A stretch of 64,000 nt of DNA from an uncultured Thermoleophilia bacterium (GCA_903927755.1 CAIYOD010000164.1:742-64741), one strand, 5' to 3'. Counted from the first letter of the stretch, positions 1 to 19,752 are shown. Numbers and translations: made by a program. Notes: generated from the letters alone by a model not told the origin.

Positions 1-1247
1 ACCGCGGCTACTGCGATGAGCACGCCGAGGGCGAGCCACGGCTGCCGGCGAGCATCGGCGCCTCGACCCTCCGCGATCACAGCTGCCCGCGCCGGACCCG
101 CGACCGCCTCCAGAGCCCACGCCACGAAGACACCACTCGCCATGAGCCCTGGGAGCAGCCCCACGGGCGCGTTCACGTAGCCGGCGGCGCTGGTGAACGC
201 GGTCGTGGCGCCGGCGATCACCGCAGGCGCCCACACCCAGTAGAGCAGCCGGGCCCCGGCCTCCCGCTTCTCGCGCGGCACGAACAGGTACAAGTACGGC
301 GCGAGCAGGACGTAGACGATCACGAGTCCGCCCGAGTCCAGCAGAGGGCGCTGCCCGGCGAGCCACAGCGCCACCGGCAGCGCGGCGAGGAGGACGCGCC
401 CGACGCGCGGCCAGCGCGTGAAGACAAGGTAGACGAGCAGGGCCGCCACGACGAGATACGGCCGCGACCAGAGAAACCGCAGAAAGCCTTGGGCGACACC
501 ATAGGCCTTGTCGGCGCCGCCCAACTGGTCCAACTCGTCGGCCACCGACATGGTGTAGGCCCAGGACCCTTGCAGATTCGCGAGGCCGAAGCTGAGAGTG
601 AGCAGGCCGACCGGAACGAGCACGACGATGCCCCCCAGGACCCAGTAACTGATCGCCCGCCAGGCTGGATGCCCCGTGGGCGGGCCATCCGGGTCGGGCG
701 GCCGCGCGAACGCAAACTCCGCCAACATACCCACCGACCGTCTCCCCATGGCGAGAGCCATGAGGACGGCGTAGAAGGGCATGACGAACAGCAGCGTCGG
801 GTACGCGACCACGGCCAGGCCATAGGCGACGCCGGAGGCGAGAGCCCAGGCGCGGCCGCCGCTCCACGTCACGACCGCGAGGCCGAGCGCCGCGCCCAGC
901 GTCAGCAGCGCGGCGCCCATCGTGTTGTAACTCAGCTGCGGCGTCTCCCAGTGGATGAAGGTCACGAAGACGAGCGCCACAGCGACGGAGAGCTCCCAGC
1001 GCACCAGGCGACGCAAGACGACGAACACGACCACGGCGACGCCGATCATGAGCAGCAGGTAGAGGTGCCTCGTGTAGAGGACGAGGCCCGTGACGTCGTA
1101 GTCGCGGAGCACGCCGAAGATCTTGACGAACGGATACGAAAGGAAGCCGCTGACCTGGGCGAGGTTCTCCTCATCCACGAACGGCGTATCGCCGAGGGCC
1201 CACCTCCAGGGCACGAGGATGTAGAAGCTCTCGTCTTGCAGGTCCAT
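1..1247 (-). CDS. Polytopic membrane protein, ArnT/PMT_2-like GT-C glycosyltransferase. The 3' end runs off the left edge, so it is absent from the ORF track.
   Basis: Own minus-strand translation from ATG 1247: MDLQDESFYILVPWRWALGDTPFVDEENL..., then continuous hydrophobic helices with no stop down to base 1. The DE-x-F-Y loop motif resembles the first periplasmic loop of ArnT/PMT-type GT-C enzymes. An in-frame TM helix lies upstream, so the start may be ATT at 1403. Confidence 0.6.
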   Translation of the reverse strand, partial: MDLQDESFYILVPWRWALGDTPFVDEENLAQVSGFLSYPFVKIFGVLRDYDVTGLVLYTRHLYLLLMIGVAVVVFVVLRRLVRWELSVAVALVFVTFIHWETPQLSYNTMGAALLTLGAALGLAVVTWSGGRAWALASGVAYGLAVVAYPTLLFVMPFYAVLMALAMGRRSVGMLAEFAFARPPDPDGPPTGHPAWRAISYWVLGGIVVLVPVGLLTLSFGLANLQGSWAYTMSVADELDQLGGADKAYGVAQGFLRFLWSRPYLVVAALLVYLVFTRWPRVGRVLLAALPVALWLAGQRPLLDSGGLVIVYVLLAPYLYLFVPREKREAGARLLYWVWAPAVIAGATTAFTSAAGYVNAPVGLLPGLMASGVFVAWALEAVAGPARAAVIAEGRGADARRQPWLALGVLIAVAA

Positions 1248-1392
1248 CCCGAGAAAGAGACGCCGCCAGGTGAGGATGACCCCGGCGACCGCAGCCGCGA
1301 GCGCGGTGGCGCCGAAGAGGACGGCGGACGCAGAGCGGACGCCGCGCGCTTCGCCGTCCGAGGAGTGCGAGACGCCAGCGTCGGCGTCGGCT

Positions 1393-2349
1393 TCAGTCGA
1401 AATTGATGCGCTCCTTCTCGATCACCAGCGGGCGATGGTACACCTGTGTGTGGATCGACCCGATGTACTCACCCAGCATCCCGATGAAGAAGAGTTGCAC
1501 GCTGGCGAACAGATACACACCGATCACCAGCGGAGCCAGGCCGAGCTCGAACGTGTCCCACATCGTCAGCTTGAGGATGAGATAGACGAGCGCCACCAGG
1601 AGCGCCAGCAGCGACGACGCGAACCCGGCCATCGCCGCCAGGCGAAGCGGGACCTTGCTGTGGTTGGTGATGCCGAGCATGGCCATGTCGTACAGCGTGT
1701 AGAAGTTGTTCTTGGTGATGCCTCGATGTCGCGTCGGCTGGGTGTAGAGGATCTCGGCGCGCTCGTAGCCGAGGTCGCAGATCAGCCCGCGGAAGTACGG
1801 ATACGGGTCGTCGATCTCGCGGAGCGTGTCCATGACGACCCGGTCGTACAGCCCGAACCCCGTGAAGTTCCGCACCAGTGGAACCTCGCTGAGCCGGTCG
1901 ACGAGCCGGTAGAACATGCCGCGCAGGAAGAACATGGCGCGCTTCTCGCGGCTCTCCTGCTTCACGCCGACGACGACCTTGTAGCCCGCCTCCCACTTGG
2001 CGACGAAATCGCGGATCATCTCGGGCGGGTCCTGCAAGTCGGCGACGATGCTGATCACCGCGTCGCCGCGCGCCTGCAACAGCCCGTGGAACGGCGAGCG
2101 GATATGGCCGAAGTTGCGCGTGTTGACGATGACCTTGACTCTGCGGTCCTCGGCGCAGATCCCGCGAAGGATCTCGACGGTGCGGTCCGTCGACGCATTG
2201 TCGATGAATACGTGTTCCCAGGTGTAGGGCTCATCGCCGCGCGGGGGCAGCGTCTCGAGTACTTCGCGTACCTGACGATGCACCTCGGCGACGTTCTGCT
2301 CCTCGTTGAAACACGCTGTGACCACACTCAGCATGGGCACGCCGATCAC
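1393..2349 (-). CDS. GT2 polyprenol-phosphate glycosyltransferase (GtrB/DPM1/ArnC-like)
   Basis: MLSVVTACFNEEQN..FIDNASTDRT..IVADLQDPPEMI, plus two C-terminal TM helices. Start is either GTG 2349 (GTGA overlap with the upstream stop) or ATG 2334. The ORF track extends to 2385. Confidence 0.85.
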   Translation of the reverse strand: MIGVPMLSVVTACFNEEQNVAEVHRQVREVLETLPPRGDEPYTWEHVFIDNASTDRTVEILRGICAEDRRVKVIVNTRNFGHIRSPFHGLLQARGDAVISIVADLQDPPEMIRDFVAKWEAGYKVVVGVKQESREKRAMFFLRGMFYRLVDRLSEVPLVRNFTGFGLYDRVVMDTLREIDDPYPYFRGLICDLGYERAEILYTQPTRHRGITKNNFYTLYDMAMLGITNHSKVPLRLAAMAGFASSLLALLVALVYLILKLTMWDTFELGLAPLVIGVYLFASVQLFFIGMLGEYIGSIHTQVYHRPLVIEKERINFD

Positions 2350-3557
2350 ATCCTTCGTTCCTCGGGCACACCGTACACCACGCACTCGAACGAGTCGTGG
2401 CGATGCGCCCTAAGGTAGAGCGCGTAACCGTCGGTGAGTTCGGCCACCAGCCTGGGCAATTCCCATAAGTCGCCAGGACGATGATAGGCGGAAATAGCGA
2501 GCAGGGGTCTCTGCTCGCGAAGGAGAGCGCGCGCGCCGAGGAGCGTCGCGGCCTCGGCTCCTTCAACATCCATCTTGATGTACGTGACCCGCTCACCGCC
2601 GAGAACATCGTCCAACCGCGCGCACGGCACCGACACGGCCTCTTCGGCGTCGTACACGCCATCTACCAAGGCCGCGGTGCTGGAGGCCCCATCGCCGCCG
2701 GCGAAGACGCAGACTCCGTTCTCGGAACTGGTCGCGAGGCGGTGAACGGCGACTCGGCGACCGACGTCGTCGCCGAGCTCGTCGATTGTGCGCAGGAGGA
2801 CTTCGTGGTTGTCGGGGTCGGGTTCGAACGCGTGGATCGTCGCGAACGACGGCATCCTGTGCACCAGATCGACGATAGTGTCGCCCGTGTACGCCCCGCA
2901 GTCCACGAAGGCCTCGTCCTCGCGGAGGCGGACCACATCACACGGGAAGTACTGGTCCGGCTGCACGGCGTCGATCTCTGCGAAGTCGCCGGAGACCCGC
3001 CAGGCTATCTGCCCAATGTAGATCGTCATCGAAAGGTCGTCGGCCCAAACGCGCGCCTGTTCGAGGATGGAGTCGCGAGCGGCCAGAGTCGTAGTCGGCA
3101 GCGATGCCGCGTACTGCGGGAGGAGCGGCCCTCCCAGCGCGCGGACGATCTCCAGCCAAGAAGACACTCTGTGACAGCCCATCGCCTCCAGCCTCGCCCT
3201 GCTCTGCACAAACGAGTGGTCCCCGTTCCAGATCGCGACGACGAACAGGGCGTCCCCGCCCCAGCGACGCGCCGCGTCCTCGTGAGACACGACGGGCACG
3301 CCGAGCAGCCTGCTGCCGTGCAGTGCCCTATTGTGGTCGGCGAAGGCGATGACCGGCAGCGACCTCTTGAGCAGTTCGGCTCCGAGGCGCCGACCGAGTC
3401 CGCCCGCGCCGACGAGAACGACGGGAGGCGCGGTCGCGGATGTCAGCGCGACCGCCAGCCGACGCTCTCTCTCGCGTGCTGGTGCCGCCCCCTCGGCAAG
3501 CACGGCGTCCAGCTCGGGGACGCGCCCTGCGATCGGTGGGTGGTCGAGCGGCTGCAT
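2346..3557 (-). CDS. FkbM-family methyltransferase with N-terminal Rossmann-like domain
   Basis: C-terminal half has AFEPDPDNHEVL and IKMDVEGAEAATL, typical of FkbM SAM methyltransferases. The N-terminus has VVLVGAGGLGRRLG. Confidence 0.8.
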   Translation of the reverse strand: MQPLDHPPIAGRVPELDAVLAEGAAPARERERRLAVALTSATAPPVVLVGAGGLGRRLGAELLKRSLPVIAFADHNRALHGSRLLGVPVVSHEDAARRWGGDALFVVAIWNGDHSFVQSRARLEAMGCHRVSSWLEIVRALGGPLLPQYAASLPTTTLAARDSILEQARVWADDLSMTIYIGQIAWRVSGDFAEIDAVQPDQYFPCDVVRLREDEAFVDCGAYTGDTIVDLVHRMPSFATIHAFEPDPDNHEVLLRTIDELGDDVGRRVAVHRLATSSENGVCVFAGGDGASSTAALVDGVYDAEEAVSVPCARLDDVLGGERVTYIKMDVEGAEAATLLGARALLREQRPLLAISAYHRPGDLWELPRLVAELTDGYALYLRAHRHDSFECVVYGVPEERRM

Positions 3558-3561
3558 CCCC

Positions 3562-4128
3562 TCAATCCCTTTCTGCGGTCATCTCGTCAGTATCGCTGTC
3601 ACGCCGGAGTTGCTTCCCCTTTCCCCGCGCCCCCGCTCCGAAGCTGTAGTACTTGTGGCCCACGTAGCTCGCCACCACCACTCCGGCCGTGAACACCGCC
3701 TGGATCACGTATGCGTTCACAGGCAGGGCTCTCGAGGCAAGAGGAAAGAAGATCAGATTCACCGCCATTGTCACCAGATAGACAATCGAGAATCGCGGCA
3801 GCTCGTACAGCACCCGGCCGTGGCTCCGGAACACGACGTAGCGATAGCCGAGATACGCATTCGCGATGGAGACCATATACGACAACACGATGATGACGGC
3901 ATTGCTGAGCGCGCCGTTCAGCAGGTAGTAGAGGACGGCGAACACGCCGTAGCCGAAGAGGGTGTTCCAGGCGCCTATCGCGAGATACAGCAGCTGCTCT
4001 CGATAGCGCTGGAACCGGCACGGGATCAGACGATCGGCCGCATGTTGAACCCAGAGACGACGCGGGTGGACCTCGTCCTGCTCAGGCGCGGCCGGAGCCG
4101 TGCCCCCTGCCGCTCGGTGAGAAGACAA
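3562..4128 (-). CDS. GtrA-family membrane protein (putative polyprenol-phosphate-sugar flippase)
   Basis: Small four-helix membrane protein with LLYLAIGAWNTLFGYGVFAVLYYLL and GYRYVVFRS, both GtrA-like signatures. Confidence 0.75.
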   Translation of the reverse strand: MSSHRAAGGTAPAAPEQDEVHPRRLWVQHAADRLIPCRFQRYREQLLYLAIGAWNTLFGYGVFAVLYYLLNGALSNAVIIVLSYMVSIANAYLGYRYVVFRSHGRVLYELPRFSIVYLVTMAVNLIFFPLASRALPVNAYVIQAVFTAGVVVASYVGHKYYSFGAGARGKGKQLRRDSDTDEMTAERD

Positions 4129-4134
4129 GACCGG

Positions 4135-4926
4135 TCACCGCGTCCAGGCGGCAGGCGCGCGCCCGAGAATCGCCGGCACCTGCTCGACGCTCGCAAGTAC
4201 GCGCCCAAGAGGATCCTCGGAGGCATCCGGCGGCGTCGGGAGCTTCACCCCAGCTCCGGGAGCAGGAACGTACGCCCATGCACACCCGCATCGCCTGGCC
4301 ATCCCGATGTCGCTCGTCCATGAATCGCCCACGACCAGGATCTCGCGCGGCGCCAGACGGTGGTCCGCGGCAGCCCACTCGAGCATGAACGGCTCCGGCT
4401 TGCCGACGACCGCGTCCGCACTGCGCCCGCACTGCGTCTCCACGAGCGCGAGCACGCGGCCGCAGCCGGGCTTCGCAACCCCCGAGGGCCCCGGATAAGT
4501 GAGGTCGCGATTGCAGCCGACGAGCATGCACTCTCTCCGCGCCACCCTGACGGCCAGGGCCGCGGGCAGGAGCCGCGGCTCATCCCCCACCGCCTGCCTC
4601 CGGTCCAAGCCCACTACGACCGCGTCCGCCTCCCCCTCGTCCCGGACGACACGCATGCCGGCAGCGGCCAGCTCCGCGCCGAGGGCCAGCGTCCCGAGAA
4701 CCCACACACACTCGACGCTCTGGGCGCCGAGCCAGCGGGCCGTTACGGCCGCAGAGGAATACACGGCGTCGAGAGCCGCGGGAATCCCGATACCGACCAG
4801 CGCATCGCCGATTTCCCCCCGCGTCCTTCCCGACGCATTGGTCAGATAGAGCGCTTGGCGGCCAGTCGCACGGACCTCCGCCACCGCCTCAGAAGCTCCG
4901 GCCACCACCTCGCCGGCGAGCAGCAA
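4135..4926 (-). CDS. HAD-superfamily hydrolase, subfamily IIA (NagD-like phosphatase); true start probably upstream of 4926
   Basis: LYLTNASGRTR and VVGDSWTSDIGMA motifs. The catalytic motif I (FDLDGTLL) is encoded in frame at 4927-4944, upstream of the first ATG/GTG/TTG. Confidence 0.7.
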   Translation of the reverse strand: MLLAGEVVAGASEAVAEVRATGRQALYLTNASGRTRGEIGDALVGIGIPAALDAVYSSAAVTARWLGAQSVECVWVLGTLALGAELAAAGMRVVRDEGEADAVVVGLDRRQAVGDEPRLLPAALAVRVARRECMLVGCNRDLTYPGPSGVAKPGCGRVLALVETQCGRSADAVVGKPEPFMLEWAAADHRLAPREILVVGDSWTSDIGMARRCGCAWAYVPAPGAGVKLPTPPDASEDPLGRVLASVEQVPAILGRAPAAWTR

Positions 4927-4996
4927 CGTGCCGTCCAGGTCAAACGCGACCGCGCGGATTCCCTCGATCTGCCGCAGCGCACCTGTGTCGCGCGGG

Positions 4997-5815
4997 CTAT
5001 TCGTAGCGACCCCCCGCCGCCTCGATCATGCGATCGTAGCGGCTCTGGAGCATCTCGATGCGAGCATGGTCCTCCTCGAAGATACAGCCGTAAAAGTCGC
5101 GCTTGTTCTTGAGCCACATGAGCTCGAACCCGACGGCCTTGAGGATGCCCTTGTCGGCCTCGCCCCCAAGGCCTTCCGGACACGCGAAGACGACCTTGCG
5201 GGTCTCGTACCGGTCGATGCAGCGCTCGGGCAGACGGCGCATGAAATCCAGCGTTGCCGCCGACACCCCGCCTCCGAGCGCGCACTCCATGTCCAGCGCC
5301 TTGGCGCGCGTGAACAGCCTGGCCGCGACCTCGAAGACCTCGTCGCTGTTGATGTCCTCACGCGTTAGACCCATGGAACCGCACATGTCGACCCTGCCGA
5401 GGACGATGCCGTCGAGTTCGCGGACCTCGTCGAGTTCCAGCATAGAATCGAAGTTGGCCACACCGGTGACCGTTTCGATGTTCACGCAGAACGACACCTG
5501 ATCGCGTTCGTCTTCGGGAAACGCGAGCTTGACCGCCATGAGGAACTTGTGCAGCGCCCACGGCGACTCGACCATCGGGCCCACCACGCGGTCCACCCCG
5601 ATCACCCGCGCTTCGTACATGTCGCGCACGGCCTCGCACCCACCGACCTTCATGGTCAGCCCGAGGCCTGCGGCGGAGATGACCTCCTTCAGCCGGATGG
5701 CCTCCTCGAGGCGAGTACCCTCCGCCTCGAATTCCGCCTTGACGCCGATGACATGGTGGTTCTCCCGCAGATCCTGCAATTGCTCGACCATCTTGCGTTC
5801 GAGTTCGTTCATCAC
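4997..5815 (-). CDS. HpcH/HpaI-type aldolase / citrate-lyase-beta-like TIM-barrel protein
   Basis: VVGPMVESPWAL and NIETVTGVANFDSMLEL..LDGIVLGRVDMCGSMGL resemble the HpcH/HpaI core motifs. The N-terminal region is atypical. Confidence 0.55.
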   Translation of the reverse strand: MMNELERKMVEQLQDLRENHHVIGVKAEFEAEGTRLEEAIRLKEVISAAGLGLTMKVGGCEAVRDMYEARVIGVDRVVGPMVESPWALHKFLMAVKLAFPEDERDQVSFCVNIETVTGVANFDSMLELDEVRELDGIVLGRVDMCGSMGLTREDINSDEVFEVAARLFTRAKALDMECALGGGVSAATLDFMRRLPERCIDRYETRKVVFACPEGLGGEADKGILKAVGFELMWLKNKRDFYGCIFEEDHARIEMLQSRYDRMIEAAGGRYE

Positions 5816-5816
5816 T

Positions 5817-7784
5817 TCACCTCTCTTCGGCCGCGTACCGCGGCCCGATCATGTTCTGAGCGAACTCCTCAGAGCTCAGGAACGGGAACATGTCCTCCAG
5901 CGGCTTGGACACGAGACGCCCATCAGGAAGCCGCTGCGCGATGACCTTGGGCGTGAAGGCCCGCTCAGGATCCATGGCTACATCCACCAGCGCCGCTCCC
6001 TCGCTTGCGAGGGCGGCCCCGATGGCCTCGTCGAGCTCGTCGTGGCGGGTGACTCGGGTCGCCTCGATGCCATACGCGCCCGCAACGGCGACCATGTCCG
6101 GGAACGTGAGACCACTGCCCGGCCCCTCGCCCACCCTGTAGCCGTCGAAGATGTTGTCCTGCGTCTGCCGGATCGAGACATAGCCGGCGTTGTCGAACAC
6201 GAAGATCTTCACCGGCAGACGATGCTGCGCAATCGTCTGCAACTCCTGGATGTTCATCTGTATGCTCCCGTCTCCGGCCAGGCAGACCACGCGCCCCGGC
6301 GGAGTGGACGGCGCGGCGTCCCCACGGCGCGCGAACGCAGCACCGACGGCGGCTGGGACATCGTAGCCCATTCCGGCCGTGCCCGAGTTGACGAGCAGGC
6401 GTTGGCGGCGCTTGAAGGCGAAGGCCTGGATCGTGATCACACAGGCCGAACCATTCGCGCACACCACAAGGTCTCCTTCCTCCAACTGCGCCGACAGTCG
6501 CTCAACGAAGACATACGGGTCTATCGGCGTCGCACTGCCCCGGGCCTCAGGCAGCATCACCGGGTAGCGGCGACGGCGCTCCAGACACCACTCGATCCAC
6601 TTGGCATGGGGCTCGACGGGCTCTCGTGCGGCCAAGCGTGCCAGTTCCTCGAGGAAGAACCGCACGTCCGCCTGCACCGCCAGGTCCGGGAAGACCGTCG
6701 GCTTGGCGAGCTCCGCTTCGTCGATGTCCACGACGATGCGATAGGCATGGTGGGCGAACGCCGCGAACTCGTAACCCACCTGCCGGACGTTCAGCCGGCA
6801 TCCCAACACGAGGGCGAGGTCCGCGTTCTGCAGCGCGAAGTTCCCCGCCCGATCGCCGACGCTCCCCGGCCTTCCGGCGAACAGCGGATGACCGTCCCAC
6901 AGCAGGTCGCAGGCATTCCAGGCTGTGCACACAGGCACGCCGAGCGCATCGATGACCTCCAGGAGAAGGTCGTGCGCTCCGGTCAGGCGCACTGCCCCGC
7001 CGGCCAGGATGACCGGATGCTCCGCCGCGCGGAGGCGGTCGAGTGTCTCGCGCGCCGCGGCTCGTGCGGCCTCACGGTCGAAGCGGCCGCTGAGGGCCCC
7101 CGGCGCCTGGGCGGCCGGTTGGATGGCAGGCCACGGTTCAAGAGCAGGGCCGGGTGGCCGCGGTACCTGCTCATGGGCGCCAGACCGCCCGGTCGTCTCG
7201 GCGCCTTCCGTCTCGTCCTCGAACTCGGCCGGATCGAATCCGAACAGACGGACCGGATCCACTTCCGCCGCCTGGACGTCGAGAGGGAAGTCCAGCCACA
7301 CCGGGCCCGGACGGCCATGCGTGGCCAGCCACGCGGCTTTCTCGAAGTGATAGCGTGCGGTGGCCGGATCGGTGACCGACACCGCATACTTCGTAATGGG
7401 GGCGACCAGGCGGACGATGTCCGCCTCTTGGTCGCCCAGTTGGCGCAGCGGAAGTCCCGTGCTCGCGACGGTCGTGTCGCGCCGGACCTGTCCGGACACG
7501 CAGAGCCCTGCGATCGAGTCGTGCCACTGGCCGAGGACGCCAGTGATCGCGTTCGTGCCCCCCGGGCCGGTGGTGACGCAGGCCACACCGATGCCGCCCG
7601 ACGTCCTGGCATAGCCCTCGGCGGCGATCGTGCACGCCTGCTCATGATGGCAGAACACCAGGTCAAGGTCGTCCCGCCGTCCGAGGGCGTCGTCAAGATG
7701 CATGGCGCCGCCGCCGGTCACAAGGAAGACGTGATGTACGCCCAGACCGGCGACTGCTTCGGCCACATAGTCAGCGACTCTCAA
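5817..7784 (-). CDS. Thiamine-diphosphate-dependent enzyme of the acetolactate-synthase/YerE type (three-domain)
   Basis: N-terminus HHVFLVTGGGAMHL..HEQACTIAAEGYAR; ThDP-binding motif CLAGDGSIQMNIQELQT..VFDNAGY; has a low-complexity insert near residue 200. Confidence 0.85.
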   Translation of the reverse strand: MRVADYVAEAVAGLGVHHVFLVTGGGAMHLDDALGRRDDLDLVFCHHEQACTIAAEGYARTSGGIGVACVTTGPGGTNAITGVLGQWHDSIAGLCVSGQVRRDTTVASTGLPLRQLGDQEADIVRLVAPITKYAVSVTDPATARYHFEKAAWLATHGRPGPVWLDFPLDVQAAEVDPVRLFGFDPAEFEDETEGAETTGRSGAHEQVPRPPGPALEPWPAIQPAAQAPGALSGRFDREAARAAARETLDRLRAAEHPVILAGGAVRLTGAHDLLLEVIDALGVPVCTAWNACDLLWDGHPLFAGRPGSVGDRAGNFALQNADLALVLGCRLNVRQVGYEFAAFAHHAYRIVVDIDEAELAKPTVFPDLAVQADVRFFLEELARLAAREPVEPHAKWIEWCLERRRRYPVMLPEARGSATPIDPYVFVERLSAQLEEGDLVVCANGSACVITIQAFAFKRRQRLLVNSGTAGMGYDVPAAVGAAFARRGDAAPSTPPGRVVCLAGDGSIQMNIQELQTIAQHRLPVKIFVFDNAGYVSIRQTQDNIFDGYRVGEGPGSGLTFPDMVAVAGAYGIEATRVTRHDELDEAIGAALASEGAALVDVAMDPERAFTPKVIAQRLPDGRLVSKPLEDMFPFLSSEEFAQNMIGPRYAAEER

Positions 7785-12322: not shown

Positions 12323-12408
12323 AGTCTCCACCTGCGACGGAGGCCCGCGGGTGACTCCGGGAGCTCGCGAAGGGTGTCGGGGCCGGACTCGGAACGCCAG
12401 GGATACCG

Positions 12409-12999
12409 ATGAATCAATCAATGTCCTACTACTCGCCTGATGAACTCGACGGCCTCGGCTTCGCCTCGTGCGGAAGCGACGTCCTCGTCAGCCGGAACGC
12501 CGCCATCCATCGCCCGGACAGGGTCAGCATCGGGGACCACGTCCGCATCGACGACTTCGTCGTCCTCACGGGCGGCGACGACGCGCTGGTGGCCATCGGC
12601 AGCTACGTCCACATCGCCGCTCACGCTGCCCTCTTCGGAAGCGCCGGCCTGGTGCTCGAGGACTTCGTGGGCGTGTCCGGGCGCGTGTCCCTCTACTCGA
12701 CCACGGATGACTACGGTGGTGACGTCCTCACCAACCCCACGGTCCCCGCTCGCTTCAAACGCGTGATCCGGGCGCCGGTCGTGCTACGGCGCCATGTCGT
12801 CGTCGGCGCCGGAAGTGTCATCCTGCCGGGCGTGACGATCGGCGAAGGCAGCGCGACGGGGGCTCTGACCCTGGTCAACCGCGACCTCGAGCCTTGGGGC
12901 ATCTACGTCGGGGCTCCTGCGCGGCTCCTGAAACGCCGTTCAGCGGGAGTGCTCGAGCTCGAGGCGGAGCTTCGCGCCTCCGACGAGGCAGACGCGTAG
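12409..12999 (+). CDS. Left-handed beta-helix (hexapeptide-repeat) acetyltransferase, probable sugar N/O-acetyltransferase
   Basis: Hexapeptide repeats: IGDHVRIDDFVVL, IGSYVHIAAHAAL, VVVGAGSVILPGVTIGEGSATGA. Confidence 0.8.
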   Translation: MNQSMSYYSPDELDGLGFASCGSDVLVSRNAAIHRPDRVSIGDHVRIDDFVVLTGGDDALVAIGSYVHIAAHAALFGSAGLVLEDFVGVSGRVSLYSTTDDYGGDVLTNPTVPARFKRVIRAPVVLRRHVVVGAGSVILPGVTIGEGSATGALTLVNRDLEPWGIYVGAPARLLKRRSAGVLELEAELRASDEADA

Positions 13000-13060: not shown

Positions 13061-14242
13061 GTGAGCACAGCTGAGCTGGCCATTCTGGGGGGAGAGCCCG
13101 AGTTCGCCGAACCGCTGCACGTCGGGAGACCGAATCTGGGCGATACCGGCAAGTTCCTTGAACGCGTCCGAGGCATCCTCGACGCGGCCTGGCTGACGAA
13201 CGACGGTCGCTGCGTCAGGGAGTTCGAGGAGCGCATCGCCGACCTCGCGCACGTCGAGCACTGCATCGCCATGTCCAGCGGCACGGCGGCCCTCGAGATC
13301 GCCAGCCGGGCGCTCGGCTTCTCCGAGGAGGTCATCATCCCGGCGTTCACGTTCGTGGCCACGGCACATGCACTGATGTGGCAAGGGGTGCGGCCCGTCT
13401 TCTGCGACATCACTCCAGACATCCACCACATCGATCCTGCGGCGATCGAGCCACTGATCACCCACCGCACGACCGGCATCATCGGCGTGCACCTCTGGGG
13501 GCAACCCTGTGATGCCGCCGCCCTCACGCAGGTGGCGAAGCGGCACGGATTGAAACTCATGTTCGACGCCGCCCACGCGCTTGGCGTGGAACGGGACGGC
13601 CGCCATGTAGGAGCGCTTGGAGACTGCGAGGTCTTCAGCTTCCACGCGACCAAGTTCCTGAACACACTGGAGGGCGGCGCAGTAGTCACGAACGACGACC
13701 AGCTCGCAGAGAAACTCCGCTTCATGCGGAACTTCGGTTTCTCAGGCGAGGACTGCGTCGCGCACCTCGGGACCAACGGCAAGATGAACGAGATCTCGGC
13801 CGCGATGGGCCTGACCCTGCTCGACCAGTACGACGACCTCATCTCGGCCAACAAGACGACGTACCAGGCGTTCGCCGACGAACTGCCGAGCGTCCCGGGG
13901 CTTCATGTCATCCAGTACCCCGACGACGGGCGCTACAACTACCAGCACGTGGTCGCCATGGTGGACGAAGCGGAGTCTGGACTGAGCCGAGACCGCATCG
14001 TTGCCGTGCTCCGCGCGGAGAACGTGCTCGCGAGGCGCTACTTCTATCCCGGCTGCCACCGCATGAAGCCCTACGCCGCGATGCACGAGTACGCCGGTCT
14101 CCACCTGCCGGTGACCGACGACGTCGCCGGGAGGGTCATCGTCTTCCCTGCAGGGCCCCAGTTGGCTCCCGCGGACGTCGGGCGCATCGGAGCGATCCTG
14201 CGCAAGGCATCTGACTCGGCACGGCGCATCACCGACGCCTAA
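13061..14242 (+). CDS. DegT/DnrJ/EryC1/StrS-family PLP-dependent sugar aminotransferase
   Basis: AMSSGTAALEIA, and the SFHATKFLNTLEGG motif with the PLP lysine retained. Confidence 0.85.
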   Translation: MSTAELAILGGEPEFAEPLHVGRPNLGDTGKFLERVRGILDAAWLTNDGRCVREFEERIADLAHVEHCIAMSSGTAALEIASRALGFSEEVIIPAFTFVATAHALMWQGVRPVFCDITPDIHHIDPAAIEPLITHRTTGIIGVHLWGQPCDAAALTQVAKRHGLKLMFDAAHALGVERDGRHVGALGDCEVFSFHATKFLNTLEGGAVVTNDDQLAEKLRFMRNFGFSGEDCVAHLGTNGKMNEISAAMGLTLLDQYDDLISANKTTYQAFADELPSVPGLHVIQYPDDGRYNYQHVVAMVDEAESGLSRDRIVAVLRAENVLARRYFYPGCHRMKPYAAMHEYAGLHLPVTDDVAGRVIVFPAGPQLAPADVGRIGAILRKASDSARRITDA

Positions 14243-14312: not shown

Positions 14313-15005
14313 TCACTCCCAAGCGTCGGTACGGATGTTCCCCTCCGGCACGCCGCGCCCACGCAGTTGCCTGGTGAGCCCGGCGAGCATCTCGGACGGG
14401 CCGCTCAGATAGAAGAGCGGCGCGTCGAGCCTCTCTATCGCCGGCCAGGCTGAGTCGACGTCGAGAACCCCTGCCGAGGCCTCCGCCACGAGCTTGCACG
14501 TGAGCGACGGCACCTCGCGGGCGCAGGCCTCGGCCAGCCGGCCGTAGATGAAGAGCTCCGGGGTCCGGGCGCCGTAGAACAGCAGCACCCTCGGCGCCGT
14601 CTTCGCCACCAGCGACTGCAAGAAGGCCGTGAACGCGGTCACGCCCGTGCCGCCGGCGAACAGGACGGCATCCCGGGAGGCATCCACAACGAACTCCCCG
14701 TATGGCAGCTTGAGCCAGACCTCACACCCCTCGGACAGCTCACGCTCCATCCTCGACGTGAACGCACCCTTAACGGCGTATGTGATCTCGAGGCGGTCCC
14801 TCTGCAGTGGCGGACTCGCGATCGAAAACACGCGGGAGTCCGGCCAGAAGCCGCCGGGCACGTACTCATCGAGCGCCAGGTGAAGGAACTGACCAGGCTT
14901 GAAGCGCGGCACCAGCGCGGATGGCCGCAGTTCCACGGTGTAGACGTGCTCTCCGTGATCAGTCACACGCTCGACACGGCAGGCGATCTTGCGGACGACG
15001 GCCAT
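14313..15005 (-). CDS. FNR-like FAD/NAD(P)H oxidoreductase, E3-type CDP-6-deoxy-delta-3,4-glucoseen reductase lacking the ferredoxin domain
   Basis: RVFSIAS (FAD-binding RxYS-like) and LFAGGTGVTAF (NAD-binding). Sits 9 nt downstream of rfbH. Only 230 aa, with no CX4CX2C motif. Confidence 0.65.
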   Translation of the reverse strand: MAVVRKIACRVERVTDHGEHVYTVELRPSALVPRFKPGQFLHLALDEYVPGGFWPDSRVFSIASPPLQRDRLEITYAVKGAFTSRMERELSEGCEVWLKLPYGEFVVDASRDAVLFAGGTGVTAFTAFLQSLVAKTAPRVLLFYGARTPELFIYGRLAEACAREVPSLTCKLVAEASAGVLDVDSAWPAIERLDAPLFYLSGPSEMLAGLTRQLRGRGVPEGNIRTDAWE

Positions 15006-15014: not shown

Positions 15015-16370
15015 TCAGCGGTCCACGGGCGCGAGCGGCCCATGGTCCGCACCCTCACCGGTCGCGCGCTCGCCGGCCATGAATCGCCTGAAGGCCTCGA
15101 CCATGTACTCCAGGCGCGCCGCGTCGATGCCGGGGTAGACGCCGACGAAGAACGTCCGTTCCATGACGGCGTCGGTGGTCGCGAGGTCGCCGACCACCCG
15201 CCGTTCGATGCTCTCGAACGCGGGGTGCCGCAGGAGGTTCCCGCTGAAGAGATTGCGCGTTTCGATCCGGTTCGCTTCGAGGAAACCCGTGAGCTCGTTC
15301 CGGGTGAACCCGGCGTCCTCGCGAACGGTGATGACGAAGCAGAACCACGACGGCTCGGTGTGCGGCGGTGCGAACGGCAGGATGAGCCGGTCCTCGAACG
15401 GCCGCAGCGCCTCGAGCAGCCGCGCGTGGTTGTGCTTGCGCGCGGCGATGAACTCCGGGAGTCGCGCGAGCTGCGCGCAACCGATCGCGGCCTGCATGTC
15501 GGTCGCCTTGAGGTTGTAGCCCAGGTGACTGTAGACGTACTTGTGGTCGTAGCCATGCGGGAGGCTGCCGAACTGCTGCGTGAAGCGTTTGCCGCACGTG
15601 TTGTTCTCGCCGCCGGCGCAGTAGCAGTCGCGGCCCCAATCGCGGATCGAGCGGGCGATCCGAGCCAGCTCCTCGTCGTCGGTGACGACCATGCCGCCCT
15701 CACCGGTGGTGATGTGGTGGGCGGGATAGAACGAGAGCGCGGCGAGATGCCCGAACGTGCCGGTGAGGCGGTCCCGGTAGCGCGACCCGAGGGCGTCGCA
15801 ATCGTCTTCCACAAGCCACAGGTCGTGCTTCTCGACCAGTTCCATGACGGTGTCCAGGTCGTAGGGCACGCCCAAGGTGTGGGCCAGCATGATCGCGCGG
15901 GTGCGTTCGCCAACGGCGGCACGCAACTGCTCCGGATCGGCGTTGTAGTCGCCCAGCGTCACGTCCACGAACACAGGTACAAGGCCGTTCTGCACGATCG
16001 GGGCCACCGTGCTGGGGAAGCCGGCGGCCACCGTGATCACCTCGTCTCCGGGCCGCAGCGCGCGCTCACCGAGCTTCGGCGAGGTCAGTGCGGTCAGCGC
16101 GACCAGATTGGCCGACGATCCCGAGTTCACGAACAAGGCGTCGGAGACGCCGAGGTAGTCGGCGATACCCGCCTCGAACTCCTCGGTGAAGCGGCTCGCG
16201 GTGAGGTAGAAGTCGAGGCTGGAGTCGACCAGGTAGCGCAGCTCCTCCTCGCCGAACACGCGGCCGGCGTAGTGGACCGGGTCGTGCGCAGGGTCGAAGG
16301 GCTTCGCCGCGTGGCGCTCACCGTGGTACTTCCCCACGAGGTCCAGGATCTCTGTTCGGCGGTCGGTCAC
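15015..16370 (-). CDS. rfbH: CDP-6-deoxy-L-threo-D-glycero-4-hexulose-3-dehydrase (E1)
   Basis: DegT fold with His replacing the PLP Lys (SFYPAHHITTGEGG) and a C-X1-C-X7-C iron-sulfur motif (DCYCAGGENNTC). The N-terminal 150 codons of the listed ORF overlap rfbG; likely start is GTG 16370, just after the rfbG stop. Confidence 0.85.
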   Translation of the reverse strand: MTDRRTEILDLVGKYHGERHAAKPFDPAHDPVHYAGRVFGEEELRYLVDSSLDFYLTASRFTEEFEAGIADYLGVSDALFVNSGSSANLVALTALTSPKLGERALRPGDEVITVAAGFPSTVAPIVQNGLVPVFVDVTLGDYNADPEQLRAAVGERTRAIMLAHTLGVPYDLDTVMELVEKHDLWLVEDDCDALGSRYRDRLTGTFGHLAALSFYPAHHITTGEGGMVVTDDEELARIARSIRDWGRDCYCAGGENNTCGKRFTQQFGSLPHGYDHKYVYSHLGYNLKATDMQAAIGCAQLARLPEFIAARKHNHARLLEALRPFEDRLILPFAPPHTEPSWFCFVITVREDAGFTRNELTGFLEANRIETRNLFSGNLLRHPAFESIERRVVGDLATTDAVMERTFFVGVYPGIDAARLEYMVEAFRRFMAGERATGEGADHGPLAPVDR

Positions 16371-16374
16371 CTCG

Positions 16375-17535
16375 TCATCCTCGTCCCCTCGCAGCGTTCT
16401 CGTCCGCGACGGCCCAGGCGAGCCCCGCGGCACGAGCGTCTTCCTCATAGGCCTGCAACTGACGCTCCACGAGATCCGGCGCCTTCGCGGCCGCGTGCGC
16501 ATACTCGCGGTACCAGACGGCGGTGTGCCGCACGGCCGTCGCCGCGTCCCAGACCGGCGCCCACGCAAGCCGCTCCCGCGCCTTGGCGCTGTCGAGACCG
16601 AGCAGGTGCGCCTCGTGCGGCTCGCCCGCCGAGTCGAGCGGCGGCGCCCACGAGCCCGTCCCCCACTCCTCGAGGAAGCGGTCCACGACCCAGCGAACCG
16701 GCCGGGCCGCGTCGCCGTCGGCCGGGCCGAAGTTCCACGGTCCCTGATACGCGCGCCCGTCATCCAGCATGAGAGCCCCGAGCCGGAGATACCCTGCCAG
16801 CGGCTCGAGCACGTGCTGCCAGGGGCGCACGGCATCGGGGTTCCGCACGACCACCGTCTCGTCGGCGGTCAGCGCACGCACGCAGTCAGGAACGATGCGG
16901 TCCGGCGCCCAGTCGCCGCCGCCGATGACGTTGCCGGCGCGCACGGAGGCGACCGCCGCCGCCCCCTCGCCGGCAAAGAAGCTCAGCCGGTACGCGTCCG
17001 TGACGAGCTCAGTGCACCCCTTGCTGGCGCTATAGGGGTCGCGCCCGCCCACGGCGTCCTCCTCGCGATAGGCACGACCGGTCTCGAGGTTGCGGTAGCA
17101 CTTGTCGCTGGTGATCACGACGACCGCCGCGACCGAATCGCAGGCTCGCACTGCGTCAAGGAGGTTCACCGTCCCCATCACGTTCGTCTCAATGGTCAGA
17201 CGGGGCTCCGCGTAGCTCAGGCGAACGAGTGGCTGGGCGGCGAGGTGGAAGACCAGCGACGGCTGCGCCGCCGCCACCTCTCCCGTGAGCCGATCGCAGT
17301 CCCTGACGTCGGCGACGATGTGGTGCATGCGCTCGTCAAGGCCCAGCGCATCGAACAGGTTCGGCTCAGTCGGCGGGTCGAGGGCGTAGCCCGTGACGTC
17401 CGCCCCCAGCCCCAGCAACCAGGACGAGAGCCACGCCCCCTTGAACCCGGTGTGGCCGGTGACGAAGACCCGCCGCCCGGCATACGCGCCGCCGAACGTC
17501 ACCAGGTCTTCCACGGCGCGGCGCCGCGCTCCCAC
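16375..17535 (-). CDS. rfbG: CDP-glucose 4,6-dehydratase
   Basis: RRVFVTGHTGFKGAWLSSWLLGLGADVTGYAL and YSASKGCTELV. The start may lie a few codons downstream, since it overlaps the rfbF end. Confidence 0.85.
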   Translation of the reverse strand: MGARRRAVEDLVTFGGAYAGRRVFVTGHTGFKGAWLSSWLLGLGADVTGYALDPPTEPNLFDALGLDERMHHIVADVRDCDRLTGEVAAAQPSLVFHLAAQPLVRLSYAEPRLTIETNVMGTVNLLDAVRACDSVAAVVVITSDKCYRNLETGRAYREEDAVGGRDPYSASKGCTELVTDAYRLSFFAGEGAAAVASVRAGNVIGGGDWAPDRIVPDCVRALTADETVVVRNPDAVRPWQHVLEPLAGYLRLGALMLDDGRAYQGPWNFGPADGDAARPVRWVVDRFLEEWGTGSWAPPLDSAGEPHEAHLLGLDSAKARERLAWAPVWDAATAVRHTAVWYREYAHAAAKAPDLVERQLQAYEEDARAAGLAWAVADENAARGRG

Positions 17536-18272
17536 AAGTCATCGAGGGCGCGCTTGTCCCGCAGCGTGTCCATCGGCTGCCAGAAGCCGTGGTGCCGGTA
17601 CGCCGCGAGTTGGCCGTCGGACGCGAGCCGTTCGAGCGGCTCGCGCTCCCACAGCGTCGCATCGCCGTCGATGTAGTCCAGTGCTGCGGACTCCAGGACG
17701 AAGAACCCGCCGTTCATCCAGCCGCCGTCTCCCTCGGGCTTCTCCACGAACGAGCTCACCGACTCTTCGTCGGCGCCGAATTCCAGCGCCCCGAAGCGCC
17801 CCGGCGGCTGCACGGCGGTCACGGTCGCCAACTTGCCCTGGGATTCGTGGACGGCGAGCAGAGCGGAGAGGTCGATGTCGGCCAAGCCGTCGCCGTAGGT
17901 CATCATGAAGCGCTCGCCGCCGACGTACTCCGCCACCCGTTTGAGGCGGCCGCCGGTCTGTGTGTCCGGTCCGGTGTCGACCAGCGTCACCCGCCACGGC
18001 TCGGCGGCGTTCTGGTGGACCTCCATCTCCCGACCGCGCAGGTCGAATGTCACATCGGCGTTGTGCAGGAAGTAGTTGGCGAAGTACTCCTTTATGAGGT
18101 AGCCCTTGTACCCCAGGCACACCACGAACTCAGTGAACCCATGGCTCCCGTAGATCTTCATGATGTGCCACAGGATGGGGTGCTCGCCGATCTCTGCCAT
18201 GGGCTTGGGCTTGACCTGAGTCTCTTCCGAGAGGCGGGTGCCCAGCCCGCCGGCGAGTATCACGGCTTTCAT
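17499..18272 (-). CDS. rfbF: Glucose-1-phosphate cytidylyltransferase
   Basis: MKAVILAGGLGTRLSEET..KPKPMAEIGEHPILWHIMKIY. ATG 18272 is preceded by GGAGGA; the ORF track extends to 18320. Confidence 0.9.
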   Translation of the reverse strand: MKAVILAGGLGTRLSEETQVKPKPMAEIGEHPILWHIMKIYGSHGFTEFVVCLGYKGYLIKEYFANYFLHNADVTFDLRGREMEVHQNAAEPWRVTLVDTGPDTQTGGRLKRVAEYVGGERFMMTYGDGLADIDLSALLAVHESQGKLATVTAVQPPGRFGALEFGADEESVSSFVEKPEGDGGWMNGGFFVLESAALDYIDGDATLWEREPLERLASDGQLAAYRHHGFWQPMDTLRDKRALDDLWERGAAPWKTW

Positions 18273-18420
18273 GGATCCTCCGGCCACTATGTCTGTCGAT
18301 CTGTCTCTCGCCGTCCCCACCGTCGGGCCGGCGCCGTGACTGTCGATTCTACGTTCCTGAGCGTCGCGCTACTAGCCGGCAGCGTCGCCGGCCGGACAGA
18401 CCCCACGTCGCTGCCGCACC

Positions 18421-19752
18421 TCAGACGGCGTCGAGAGGCACCCCGCCCACCCCACGTACAGGCCGCCGACGATCGACGATCGCGACGACCATGAGGGCCA
18501 GGAGAACCACCGGGTAGACGACGACCGAGATGCTCACGCCATCGACTGCCAAGGAGAGGTAGCGGTAGTCCACCGGAACCAGCAGCAAGCCGAAGAGGAC
18601 GACGTAGACGACATCCCATCGTGAGACGCGCGGTGCATTCACGAAGAACACGAGCGGGAAGTACATCTGGATCAGCGTGTAGTCGGACGAGGCGAACGGC
18701 AGAAGTACCGCCGGCACCATGGCGAACAGCACTCGCTTCCAGCGCTCGCTCTCAACGAGGAGCACGTAGGCCGCCAGCGCGAGGAAGATGAATCCCGACG
18801 CCAGCGTGTACAGCTTGGTCTCCCAGCCGGCGACGGCCACCCCCCGAAGGAAGCCCGGCATGCGCAGCAGCCCCCACAGAGAATGCCCGTGCTGCAGACC
18901 GCCGTCGAGGTAGACCATGTACTGCTGGAACGCGTCCTTGTTCCCGGTGCTCATCGCCAGCACATCCGTGAGGCCGTGATGACCAAGCGCCGCGAGCGCG
19001 ATCACCCCGATGGCTGTGAGACCCACCGCGAAGGCTATGGACAGGACGAGGGGCTTGAACCGCCGCTCGGCCAGCAACAGCAAGAGCAGCGTCGCCGGAT
19101 ACAGCTTGAAGGCGATCGCGGCGCCCAGGAACAGCGCAGCGAGCCACGATGACTGGCGCACGTACAGCGAGTAGAAGAACCCCGCGATGAAGACGAAGAG
19201 CACCATCTCCAGATTGGCTCGATCCACCACGAAGATGACCGGATACGACAGGACGATCAGGATGAAGACGTACTGGACCTTGACGAGCACGCGCTCCTCG
19301 GCGTCGACGAACCACCCACGGAGCAGGAGAGCCAGTATCACCAGAAACGTAGCGATGACCAGCGCGAAGCCGACCCGGATCGGCGCGACGGTGGCCGCAG
19401 CGATCGTGAGGAAGGAGAACGGGAAGTAGACGAACGGCGCGGCCGGGTCCCCCCCAAGGAAGGCCTCGGCGTAGAGGTAGACGTTCTTCCAGTCCATGAA
19501 GTGGTCGGAGGGCTTGAACAGGAACGTGGACTGGGGGTACCCAAGGCCGAAGTAGAATCCGGTCACGTAGTGGTAGGCGATAGCCGAGACCGTCCCCACG
19601 AGCACAATCGTCGCCAAGAGGCGGACTCGGGAGCTCTTGACGCTCGGGTCCACCAAGAGGTGGCTGTCGTCGGTGGCGCTGTTCACGGTGGCCCCTTGTC
19701 GTTCCTCTGTCGGAAGTGCCCTTCGTCGCTGCTCCGACGGCCCGTCGCGCAT
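18421..19752 (-). CDS. Polytopic GT-C-like membrane protein, third paralog (DUF2029/GT87-like)
   Basis: STFLFKPSDHFMDW, VVDRANLEMVLFVFIAGFFYSLYVR, AIAFKLYPATLLLLLLAERR and LQHGHSLWGLLR are near-identical to the 9943-11232 product. Exact start uncertain. Confidence 0.7.
   Translation of the reverse strand: MRDGPSEQRRRALPTEERQGATVNSATDDSHLLVDPSVKSSRVRLLATIVLVGTVSAIAYHYVTGFYFGLGYPQSTFLFKPSDHFMDWKNVYLYAEAFLGGDPAAPFVYFPFSFLTIAAATVAPIRVGFALVIATFLVILALLLRGWFVDAEERVLVKVQYVFILIVLSYPVIFVVDRANLEMVLFVFIAGFFYSLYVRQSSWLAALFLGAAIAFKLYPATLLLLLLAERRFKPLVLSIAFAVGLTAIGVIALAALGHHGLTDVLAMSTGNKDAFQQYMVYLDGGLQHGHSLWGLLRMPGFLRGVAVAGWETKLYTLASGFIFLALAAYVLLVESERWKRVLFAMVPAVLLPFASSDYTLIQMYFPLVFFVNAPRVSRWDVVYVVLFGLLLVPVDYRYLSLAVDGVSISVVVYPVVLLALMVVAIVDRRRPVRGVGGVPLDAV

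Follow-up and report, generated by a model that had tools for sequence, protein, structure and literature searches.

In this study we analysed a stretch of 64,000 nucleotides from an uncultured Thermoleophilia bacterium (GCA_903927755.1, CAIYOD010000164.1:742-64741; the whole stretch is called the window below). Within bases 1-19752 we found 18 open frames, g1 to g18, which together form a glycosylation island. We consider it probable that this island encodes an extracytoplasmic three-component glycosylation system, the main donor of which would be a C4 acyl-branched 3,6-dideoxyhexose activated with cytidine diphosphate (CDP). This most likely reading rests on the gene content and on about 90 related loci in other bacteria. 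An earlier reading of the same DNA (the original prediction) had proposed that CDP-activated 3,6-dideoxy sugars are loaded onto polyprenol phosphate by two GtrB-like enzymes of family GT2, flipped by GtrA and added outside the membrane by GT-C glycosyltransferases. Independent comparative evidence now supports such a route for a CDP-made rare sugar in the case of the GT2 protein g2, whose relatives are linked to RfbF, RfbG, RfbH and YerE-like genes. However, it does not extend to the second GtrB-like protein, g11, whose relatives stand in cassettes that have no CDP genes.

The steps that we propose are the following. RfbF, RfbG and RfbH, assigned by curated equivalog models, would make CDP-4-keto-3,6-dideoxyglucose together with the flavin reductase g14. 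By analogy with the YerE/ErwE/MMAR_2332 scheme, the aldolase-family protein g6, perhaps with the help of the phosphatase g5, would deliver a hydroxy-2-keto acid, which the thiamine diphosphate (ThDP) enzyme g7 would decarboxylate and add to C4. On the same analogy g8 would reduce the ketone of the side chain and g3 would probably O-methylate the sugar. The transfer from CDP to polyprenyl phosphate would be the task of g2, as suggested by its full-length homology to GtrB and ArnC and by its gene linkage across phyla. GtrA (g4) may flip the lipid-linked sugar, and g1 and the GT87 protein g9 may attach it to an envelope glycan outside the membrane. In addition, a second and separately acquired module (g13, g12, g11, g10 and g18) would make a 4-acetamido-deoxyhexose that might be installed by the same lipid-carrier route.

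The GT2 protein g2 is linked to CDP-sugar genes

As originally predicted, both g2 and g11 carry the ADLQDP motif and C-terminal transmembrane (TM) helices, two in each protein, and both align over their full length with the PgfS and ArnC models. When compared with known structures, g2 matched GtrB (5EKP) with an E value of 6e-49 and residues 2-305 aligned, and it matched ArnC structures too. The subfamily of g2 has its own conserved motifs, namely IDNAS in place of (D/N)DGS, TGFGLYD in place of DF(R/V)LMD, and RNFGHIRSP, which are invariant and differ from those of GtrB and g11. These differences carry no nucleotide reading, and the one paper searched for uracil-contact residues from which nucleotide specificity could be read gave none.

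We scanned one genome per species of the Genome Taxonomy Database (GTDB) with g2 and obtained at least 566 relatives, the best 80 of which (59-82% identical) were used for neighbourhood counts. These 80 belong to Chloroflexota, Actinomycetota, Bacillota, Nitrospirota, Bacteroidota, Verrucomicrobiota, Pseudomonadota and candidate phyla, and cultured carriers of the subfamily include Paenibacillus sp. GM2, Flavihumibacter soli and Sphingomonas deserti. At our first thresholds (E <=1e-10, coverage >=50%), where part of the matches are cross-family ones, a YerE-like gene lay within 10 kb of the g2 homologue in 59/80 loci, RfbH in 47/80, RfbF in 44/80 and RfbG in 43/80. A second count was made with identity thresholds: YerE-like homologues were then present in 48/80 loci, and among the 54 loci with full 10-kb flanks, 49 had an RfbF, RfbG, RfbH or YerE-like gene within that distance, and in 26 of these 54 the ThDP enzyme occurred together with RfbH.

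More distant relatives of g2 are found in cultured bacteria as well, among them Methylovirgula sp. HY1 (plasmid pHY1) and Roseibium/Labrenzia plasmids. The series of plasmids is graded, with CDP genes beside the GT2 at 37-40% identity to g2 and none at 33-36%. On pHY1 (40%; locus L111:9560-16940) GtrA and the GT2 are followed by a split transketolase, rfbH, an oxidoreductase, rfbG and rfbF. Labrenzia and Leisingera (~37%) show, by RefSeq annotation, GtrA, a hypothetical protein of ~550 amino acids (aa), rfbF, rfbG, DegT, a methyltransferase, an oxidoreductase and the GT2, and on pSymB of S. meliloti (37%) rfbF, rfbG and an RfbH-like gene were located beside the GT2 by tblastn. GtrA is annotated in all three annotated plasmid records at 37-40%, those of Methylovirgula, Labrenzia and Leisingera, the S. 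meliloti record carrying no annotation. At lower identity we found a methyltransferase, GT39, GtrA and the GT2 on Cupriavidus pMOL30 (35%), and GtrA and the GT2 in Bacillus thuringiensis (33%), in both cases with no CDP genes.

On pHY1 a transketolase-type ThDP enzyme stands where the YerE-like enzyme would be. This suggests that a second branching chemistry might feed the same lipid-carrier route.

The linkage bears on a simpler explanation, in which both GtrB-like enzymes use uridine diphosphate (UDP)-Glc, UDP-GlcNAc or guanosine diphosphate (GDP)-Man, the CDP-sugar goes to a Leloir transferase encoded elsewhere and the envelope genes cluster here by chance. The characterised GtrB-type charging enzymes in the papers that we searched take only UDP- or GDP-sugars, and we know of no characterised GtrB, ArnC or DPMS enzyme that uses anything else. 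The conservation of the g11 family (75-84%) across cassettes with different tailoring genes could reflect such a common donor too, and the gene content of this genome was read within 64 kb only, which leaves room for an unlinked transferase. However, the linkage is specific to the subfamily, with CDP or ThDP genes at the 49 of 54 loci counted above, and the pair rfbF and rfbG is kept at 37-40% identity but neither at 33-36% nor in the g11 family. Moreover, the g2 subfamily has invariant substitutions of its own in the GT-A motifs when compared with GtrB and g11, and there is no Leloir glycosyltransferase in the island or beyond it in the relatives. Hence we regard a common UDP- or GDP-sugar donor as quite improbable.

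The proposed transfer of a CDP-sugar to polyprenyl phosphate by g2 further agrees with the neighbours of its homologues, beside which GtrA-like genes and large polytopic genes recur. The polytopic proteins have 500-900 aa and 7-15 TM-like segments and are mutually unrelated. Ten of them were searched with Pfam, mostly giving no family and in two cases weak PMT or PMT_2 matches, so that these proteins were classed by their number of TM segments only. Such constancy of the GT2 beside changing polytopic partners is typical of Gtr systems, where the GT2 is specific for the donor and the GT-C enzyme for the acceptor. It might be that the whole g2 clade, from ~37% to 82% identity, consists of pan-bacterial, horizontally mobile CDP-sugar:polyprenyl-phosphate glycosyltransferases, and that CDP-derived sugars of the deoxy and acyl-branched kinds (yersiniose, erwiniose and caryophyllose type) are commonly transferred outside the membrane, from a lipid-phosphate carrier, by GT-C enzymes and not by cytoplasmic Leloir transferases. 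To this wider generalisation we would give an even chance.

Gene content of the island

Genes were assigned with Pfam and NCBIfam profiles, and membrane segments and motifs were determined by hydropathy and motif reading. In this way all sugar-nucleotide, GtrA, GtrB-like and GT-C genes named in the original prediction were recovered at their places. The inventory was right in what it listed, but it had overlooked the HpcH/HpaI aldolase (4997-5815) and the HAD-IIA phosphatase (4135-5025). The frames of the island and its right border are:

g1, 1..1421, minus strand: polytopic membrane protein, GT-C-like; its C-terminus lies beyond the window edge; database gene call of 577 aa.
g2, 1393..2334, minus strand: GtrB/ArnC-like GT2 of the polyprenyl-phosphate type, proposed CDP-sugar:polyprenyl-phosphate transferase (PF00535).
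g3, 2346..3557, minus strand: FkbM-family methyltransferase with an N-terminal extension of ~200 aa (PF05050, E 3e-16; TIGR01444).
g4, 3562..4128, minus strand: small membrane protein of the GtrA family, putative flippase, four TM-like segments (PF04138, 50.7 bits, cut-off 26.1).
g5, 4135..5025, minus strand: HAD-IIA phosphatase (Hydrolase_6/Hydrolase_like, TIGR01460).
g6, 4997..5815, minus strand: HpcH/HpaI aldolase/citrate-lyase family protein, proposed maker of the 2-keto acid (PF03328, 37 bits, cut-off 25).
g7, 5817..7784, minus strand: YerE-like ThDP-dependent carboligase (three TPP_enzyme domains).
g8, 7791..8678, minus strand: reductase of the short-chain dehydrogenase/reductase (SDR)/epimerase family, in the position of YerF (PF01370, E 5e-25).
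g9, 8675..9946, minus strand: polytopic GT87 (GT-C) glycosyltransferase (PF09594, 31.9 bits, cut-off 25).
g10, 9943..11232, minus strand: polytopic GT87 (GT-C) glycosyltransferase directly downstream of g11 (PF09594, 45.4 bits, cut-off 25).
g11, 11229..12227, minus strand: second GtrB/ArnC-like GT2; database gene call of 314 aa (PF00535; PgfS, 209 bits; ArnC, 147 bits).
g12, 12409..12999, plus strand: hexapeptide-repeat acyl/acetyltransferase (PF00132; weak WcaF and NeuD/PglB/VioB-type matches).
g13, 13061..14242, plus strand: DesI-like sugar 4-aminotransferase (PF01041, 353 bits; TIGR04427 DesI, 483 bits, below the cut-off of 650).
g14, 14313..15005, minus strand: FNR-type flavin reductase of 230 aa in the E3 role, without a [2Fe-2S] domain (NAD_binding_1, FAD_binding_8 and NAD(P)H-flavin reductase models).
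g15, 15015..16376, minus strand: RfbH (E1), CDP-6-deoxy-4-keto-hexose 3-dehydrase (NF011936, 685.8 bits, cut-off 423).
g16, 16375..17535, minus strand: RfbG, CDP-glucose 4,6-dehydratase (TIGR02622, 461.2 bits, cut-off 278).
g17, 17499..18320, minus strand: RfbF, glucose-1-phosphate cytidylyltransferase (TIGR02623, 431.8 bits, cut-off 300).
g18, 18421..19752, minus strand: polytopic GT87 (GT-C) glycosyltransferase with ~12 TM-like segments (PF09594, 46.4 bits, cut-off 25).
Flank, cdsA 19813-20595 and uppS 20592-21461, minus strand: housekeeping border of the island (cdsA PF01148; uppS PF01255, TIGR00055).

The G+C content of the window ranges from 63 to 76%, and hardly any real gene is on the plus strand. 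In the island the G+C content, overall and at third codon positions (GC3), is below that of the flanks, with a minimum of 0.625 at 10-12 kb. All 18 island frames are open and of full length and have a high GC3, and stop and start codons overlap at g9/g10, g10/g11 and g15/g16.

A predicted pathway to a branched CDP-sugar

RfbF, RfbG and RfbH all exceed the cut-offs of their NCBIfam equivalog models. The reductase g14 had been called E3-like, and its flavin adenine dinucleotide (FAD)/nicotinamide adenine dinucleotide (NAD) module agrees with this name. However, FAD/NAD-binding modules are all that it carries, and the plant-type [2Fe-2S] domain by which a canonical E3 is recognised is not present. 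Orthologues of g14 that are 68-72% identical adjoin rfbH in the relative loci L001, L038 and L042, so that g14 may act like an E3 without being a canonical one.

The best match of g7 in the Protein Data Bank (PDB) is the YerE-like enzyme JanthE (8RPH; E 1e-117), and acetolactate synthases follow at 1e-62. We also considered whether g7 could be an ordinary acetolactate synthase and rejected this, since the protein falls below every acetolactate synthase equivalog cut-off and is far nearer to the YerE-like structure. The aldolase-family protein g6 passes the HpcH_HpaI gathering score with a match that spans only part of the profile; a sequence search of the PDB gave no match, and homologues in other phyla are 41-86% identical. 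By profile g8 is a generic SDR, and in relatives both g8 and the homologue of g6 adjoin the ThDP gene. Homologues of the methyltransferase g3 are found in 11/80 g2 loci. The first canonical start codon of g5 (TTG at 4926) comes only after the in-frame nucleophile motif (HAD motif I, FDLDGT), which falls in the part that overlaps the end of g6 (window 4927-5025); hence either g5 starts at a non-canonical codon or its annotation is in doubt.

Steitz et al. 2022 (PMC9306805) showed that erwiniose, caryophyllose and gastriose arise by one common scheme, in which the hydroxy-2-keto acid made by an aldolase is joined to CDP-4-keto-3,6-dideoxyglucose by a YerE-like enzyme and the branch is completed by a YerF-like reductase. 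According to the same paper the aldolase of the caryophyllose cluster, MMAR_2331, belongs to the aldolase/citrate-lyase family, as g6 does, and the R. palustris cluster has an extra methyltransferase (PMC9306805). In the island this scheme is reproduced by g17, g16, g15, g14, g6, g7, g8 and g3, with g6 and g8 as candidates for the aldolase and reductase steps. It would lead to a CDP-linked 4-C-(hydroxyalkyl)-3,6-dideoxyhexose that may be O-methylated and whose branch length is not readable from sequence. The original prediction had named a 3,6-dideoxy sugar, and its CDP pathway stands. However, the aldolase-family protein, the YerE-like enzyme and the candidate reductase make a C4 acyl-branched derivative of the yersiniose/erwiniose/caryophyllose class more likely than a plain 3,6-dideoxyhexose.

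The GT-C candidates

Four GT-C-like proteins had been proposed for the island. Three of them (g9, g10 and g18) belong to GT87 by profile; the fourth, g1, has no Pfam or NCBIfam match and is GT-C-like by the model of a homologue. All 224 homologues of g1 are unannotated. For one of them, P0002 (84% identical), an AlphaFold2 model built with 43 sequences reached a mean pLDDT of 88 and a pTM of 0.89. When this model was compared with the PDB by Foldseek, the first 24 places were all taken by GT-C proteins (AglB, STT3, PglB, ArnT, AftA, DPY19, ALG9 and Pmt4), with probabilities of 0.98-1.00 and TM-scores of only 0.38-0.54. Judged by the model of its homologue, g1 has the GT-C fold. In the g1 family D53 and E57 are invariant and follow straight after the first TM segment (TM1), and the order g2-g1 is kept in relatives down to 37-40% g1 identity (L002, L008).

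The start of g1 is less clear. Relatives carry a GTG upstream of TM1. In the window g1 has none of the codons ATG, GTG and TTG ahead of the conserved TM1, and initiation at the first ATG, at 1247, would make the protein begin exactly with the invariant D..E motif. For this region (window 1247-1421) one may think of a non-canonical start, of a truncation of the protein or of a sequencing error.

Among the GT87 proteins, g9 is 37% identical to g18, and g10 and g18 are paralogues of 59% identity. Genes like g9 come after rfbH in the loci L008, L082 and L090.

A second module around g11

Members of the g11 family that are 75-84% identical occur in Bacteroidales, Nitrospira, Rhodoferax, Pseudomonas, Polaromonas and Methylomonas. 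We examined four independent contexts of this family, in Methylomonas EFPC1, in Pseudomonas sp. IT-P12 and on two metagenome contigs (cassette loci L102:900-12600, L105:2250-11340, L107:3420-11500 and L108:3170-14580). The cassette reads DegT, WbqC, (3HCDH), methyltransferase, two proteins of ~320 aa, GNAT, methyltransferase, GT2, (methyltransferase) and GtrA, and it is accompanied by a PMT-family or unclassified protein of ~540-810 aa. The cassette is apparently mobile, and its gene content suggests three-component glycosylation with an amino sugar that has undergone much tailoring. No RfbF, RfbG, RfbH or YerE-like gene was found in any of the contexts (4/4), which weighs against a CDP-fed route as regards the second module; since the g11 family stands in cassettes without CDP genes, the CDP claim stands for g2 only.

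Of this cassette the window has the GT2 only, joined to g13, g12 and the GT87 protein g10. The aminotransferase g13 is only 34-36% identical to the DegT of the cassette, and its best PDB match is DesI (2PO3; E 4e-111). The lowest G+C content of the window (0.625; window 10000-12400) falls on g10 and g11, and at first codon positions the G+C content of g11 is 0.56. This low G+C content and the 75-84% identity of g11 to proteobacterial and Bacteroidales proteins fit a recent acquisition of the second module from another phylum. Going by the genes, its donor is likely a 4-acetamido-4,6-dideoxy- or 3,4,6-trideoxy-hexose. The nucleotide could be CDP, by way of the RfbG product, or dTDP or UDP supplied from unlinked genes.

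Other assembly machinery and the island in relatives

Among the 50 window frames that we scanned there is no Wzx, Wzy, Wzz, Wzm/Wzt or other ABC exporter, no priming phosphoglycosyltransferase and no Leloir glycosyltransferase, in agreement with what had been read from the sequence before. The 30 further window frames searched with Pfam are all housekeeping genes; some small frames and the regions 45.8-49.1 kb and 57.6-59.5 kb were read by hydropathy only, and to the right of 21.5 kb no frame has four or more TM-like segments.

What lies to the left of the window was judged through relatives, using a metagenome scan with g1 that gave 20 loci of 60-85% identity. The order uppS-cdsA-g1-dxr-rseP-epimerase-ispG was found in L087 and L101, with a gene for a class II tRNA synthetase further downstream in L087. 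In L083 the order is g2-g1, a GT87-matching protein and dxr. This protein of a close relative is an open frame of 1010 aa (L083:3115-6144) with two GT87-matching stretches. The original prediction had named conventional export or Leloir genes just past the left edge as evidence that would speak against it; the relatives show dxr, rseP and ispG there instead, and beyond g1 they have no Wzx, Wzy, ABC, priming or Leloir genes.

From the gene order of the relatives it follows that the island sits inside a conserved block, between cdsA and dxr. It is thus next to cdsA and uppS, as had been said, but not at the end of the conserved block. The neighbourhood of uppS, which the original prediction had noted together with its role in carrier-lipid synthesis, might be read as a sign of a functional link with the carrier lipid. 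We rejected this, because the uppS-cdsA-dxr arrangement is found in relatives without the island as well and reflects conserved synteny only.

Twelve g1 loci with readable upstream DNA have an intact g2 ahead of g1. In six loci (L081, L086, L087, L089, L091 and L101) g1 comes straight after cdsA, and L092 has cdsA and a g2 remnant of 57 aa ahead of g1. In a DNA alignment, L081:3810-4110, L086:650-950 and L087:1715-2015 retain the last ~75 nucleotides of g2 (window 1393-1470) almost unchanged, and their homology stops at one common junction. This common junction means that a single deletion ending inside g2 removed the island in the clade of L081, L086 and L087. Insertion of the island into a naive site after cdsA was rejected for the same reason: a variable island between cdsA and dxr does exist, but the island-free L081, L086 and L087 hold the g2 remnant and are deletion derivatives.

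Several points weigh against the lipid-carrier route proposed for the branched sugar, besides the missing start codon of g1 and the contexts of the g11 family described above. The primary pathway of the acceptor glycan lies neither in the window nor in the flanks of the relatives. A GtrA-like frame was detected in only 38/80 g2 loci (with a crude hidden Markov model), and many Gram-negative g2 loci lie within larger polysaccharide clusters that have Leloir glycosyltransferases, for example the GT4 genes at the Labrenzia/Leisingera loci. Finally, g1 is intact and conserved in L081, L086 and L087 after the loss of the island, and this persistence without g2 means that g1 might use another lipid-linked donor.

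This last point leads to the main alternative, direct glycosylation of a lipid-linked acceptor by a membrane GT2. Here g2, possibly also g11, would move the CDP-sugar directly onto a membrane glycolipid or lipid-linked oligosaccharide at the cytoplasmic face, and GtrA, the GT87 proteins and g1 would serve other lipid-linked donors, for example polyprenyl-P-mannose. GT87 enzymes are in fact best known as users of polyprenyl-P-mannose, and the persistence of g1 in relatives that lost g2 would be in line with such a division of labour. Direct transfer has been raised as an alternative for DPM-like GT2s in a paper on the lipooligosaccharides of M. kansasii (PMC4403928), and MMAR_2333 of M. marinum, which is needed for the addition of caryophyllose, is listed only as 'GT-A type' (PMC9306805, PMC4403928). 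However, g2 is aligned with GtrB and ArnC over its full length, both TM helices included, and in plasmids of cultured strains that have rfbF and rfbG, GtrA adjoins the GT2. The pair g2-g1 is kept down to 37% g1 identity, and the window lacks a third, ppm1-like GT2 from which four GT-C enzymes could be fed. We therefore hold direct transfer to be unlikely and prefer the transfer of the CDP-sugar to polyprenyl phosphate.

One could further suppose that the island is a remnant of a mobile cassette which is partly decayed or non-functional in this genome. The g1 start problem, the position of HAD motif I upstream of the first canonical start of g5, the deletion of the island in sister lineages and its G+C content below the flanks could all be read in this way. 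However, none of the 18 frames is closed or shortened, their GC3 is high, and the protein sequence encoded by the TM1 codons of g1 is conserved; the three overlaps of stop and start codons (g9/g10, g10/g11 and g15/g16) point to intact operons. Decay of the island thus seems very improbable to us.

Comparison with known systems

Three-component glycosylation is known for Glc, Gal, GlcNAc, Man, Ara4N and GalN, and since 2024 for pentofuranoses (PMC11127046). The glucosylation of O-antigen by the Gtr systems of Shigella and Salmonella phages (5EKP) resembles the island in its ADLQDP GT2 with two TM helices, in GtrA and polytopic GT-C enzymes, and in the combination of a conserved GT2 with divergent polytopic partners. 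In contrast to the predicted CDP-based branched dideoxyhexose of the island, Gtr uses UDP-Glc; moreover, the island has four GT-C candidates and two GT2s, is not phage-borne and belongs to a monoderm actinobacterium without O-antigen. ArnC and ArnT, which act through undecaprenyl phosphate (Und-P)-L-Ara4FN, are a precedent for a rare-sugar pathway encoded in the same locus as a GtrB-like Und-P transferase and a GT-C enzyme. Both g2 and g11 match ArnC models, g2 also matches ArnC structures, and ArnT is among the Foldseek matches of the g1-homologue model. However, the Arn system uses a UDP-sugar, the flippases ArnE/F and lipid A as acceptor, whereas the island would use CDP in the case of g2 and has GtrA as the candidate flippase.

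With respect to the sugar, the nearest systems are YerE/YerF, ErwE/F/I/J and MMAR_2331-2333 (PMC9306805), which follow the chemical logic proposed for the island and share with it RfbF/G/H and a YerE-like enzyme, by protein family probably also the aldolase and the side-chain reductase, and in R. palustris a methyltransferase too. Unlike in the island, the transfer step published for these clusters is an uncharacterised 'glycosyltransferase', and no lipid-phosphate carrier, GtrA or GT-C enzyme has been proposed for them (PMC9306805; 2025 review). The mycobacterial Ppm1/GT87 systems (PimE, Rv2181-type) are similar in that three GT87 proteins occur in an actinobacterium and in the logic of an extracytoplasmic lipid-P-sugar. 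They differ in that the island is without a Ppm1-type GDP-Man enzyme and its GT2s are GtrB/ArnC-like and linked to rare-sugar pathways. The pentofuranose systems (Kelly et al. 2024, PMC11127046) likewise widened the three-component route to a new class of donors and are widespread, but their charging enzyme uses phosphoribosyl pyrophosphate (PRPP) and is not a GtrB-type GT2, and their sugars are pentofuranoses (PMC11127046).

In the literature that we searched we found nothing that joins GtrB, GtrA, GT-C or polyprenol with CDP-, dideoxy or branched sugars, and this includes PMC11127046 and the 2025 YerE review. The Gtr/Arn-type machinery and the YerE-type sugar pathway are each known; what would be new is their junction, which appears undescribed, and the original prediction, too, was not aware of a three-component system fed by a CDP-activated 3,6-dideoxy sugar. 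If the wider generalisation on the g2 clade is true, the clade would be the first CDP-dependent member of the GtrB/ArnC/DPMS class, and side-chain decorations could be predicted by a general rule in many glycans that have yet to be characterised. A CDP-dependent subfamily would widen the donor chemistry of this class. It would also account for the transfer step that is missing from the pathways of acyl-branched dideoxy sugars, and such sugars act as antigenic determinants in several bacteria. The g2 subfamily might then serve as a simple genomic marker by which these sugars and their extracytoplasmic addition could be predicted in hundreds of bacteria, uncultured as well as cultured. The cultured carriers put the idea of a CDP-sugar lipid-carrier route within direct experimental reach.

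The housekeeping block

The rest of the window is an actinobacterial housekeeping block with cdsA, uppS, frr, pyrH, tsf, rpsB, a sigma factor, xerC, dprA and comM, and it further holds two lepB genes, ffh, ftsY, smc, rnc, plsX, xerD, pyrG, recN and nadK. Tandem paralogues of signal peptidase I (S26) lie adjacent to each other at window 30926-32146. The rpsB frame (23481-24830) has ~450 codons; its S2 domain covers only residues 43-258 and is followed by a long C-terminal extension.

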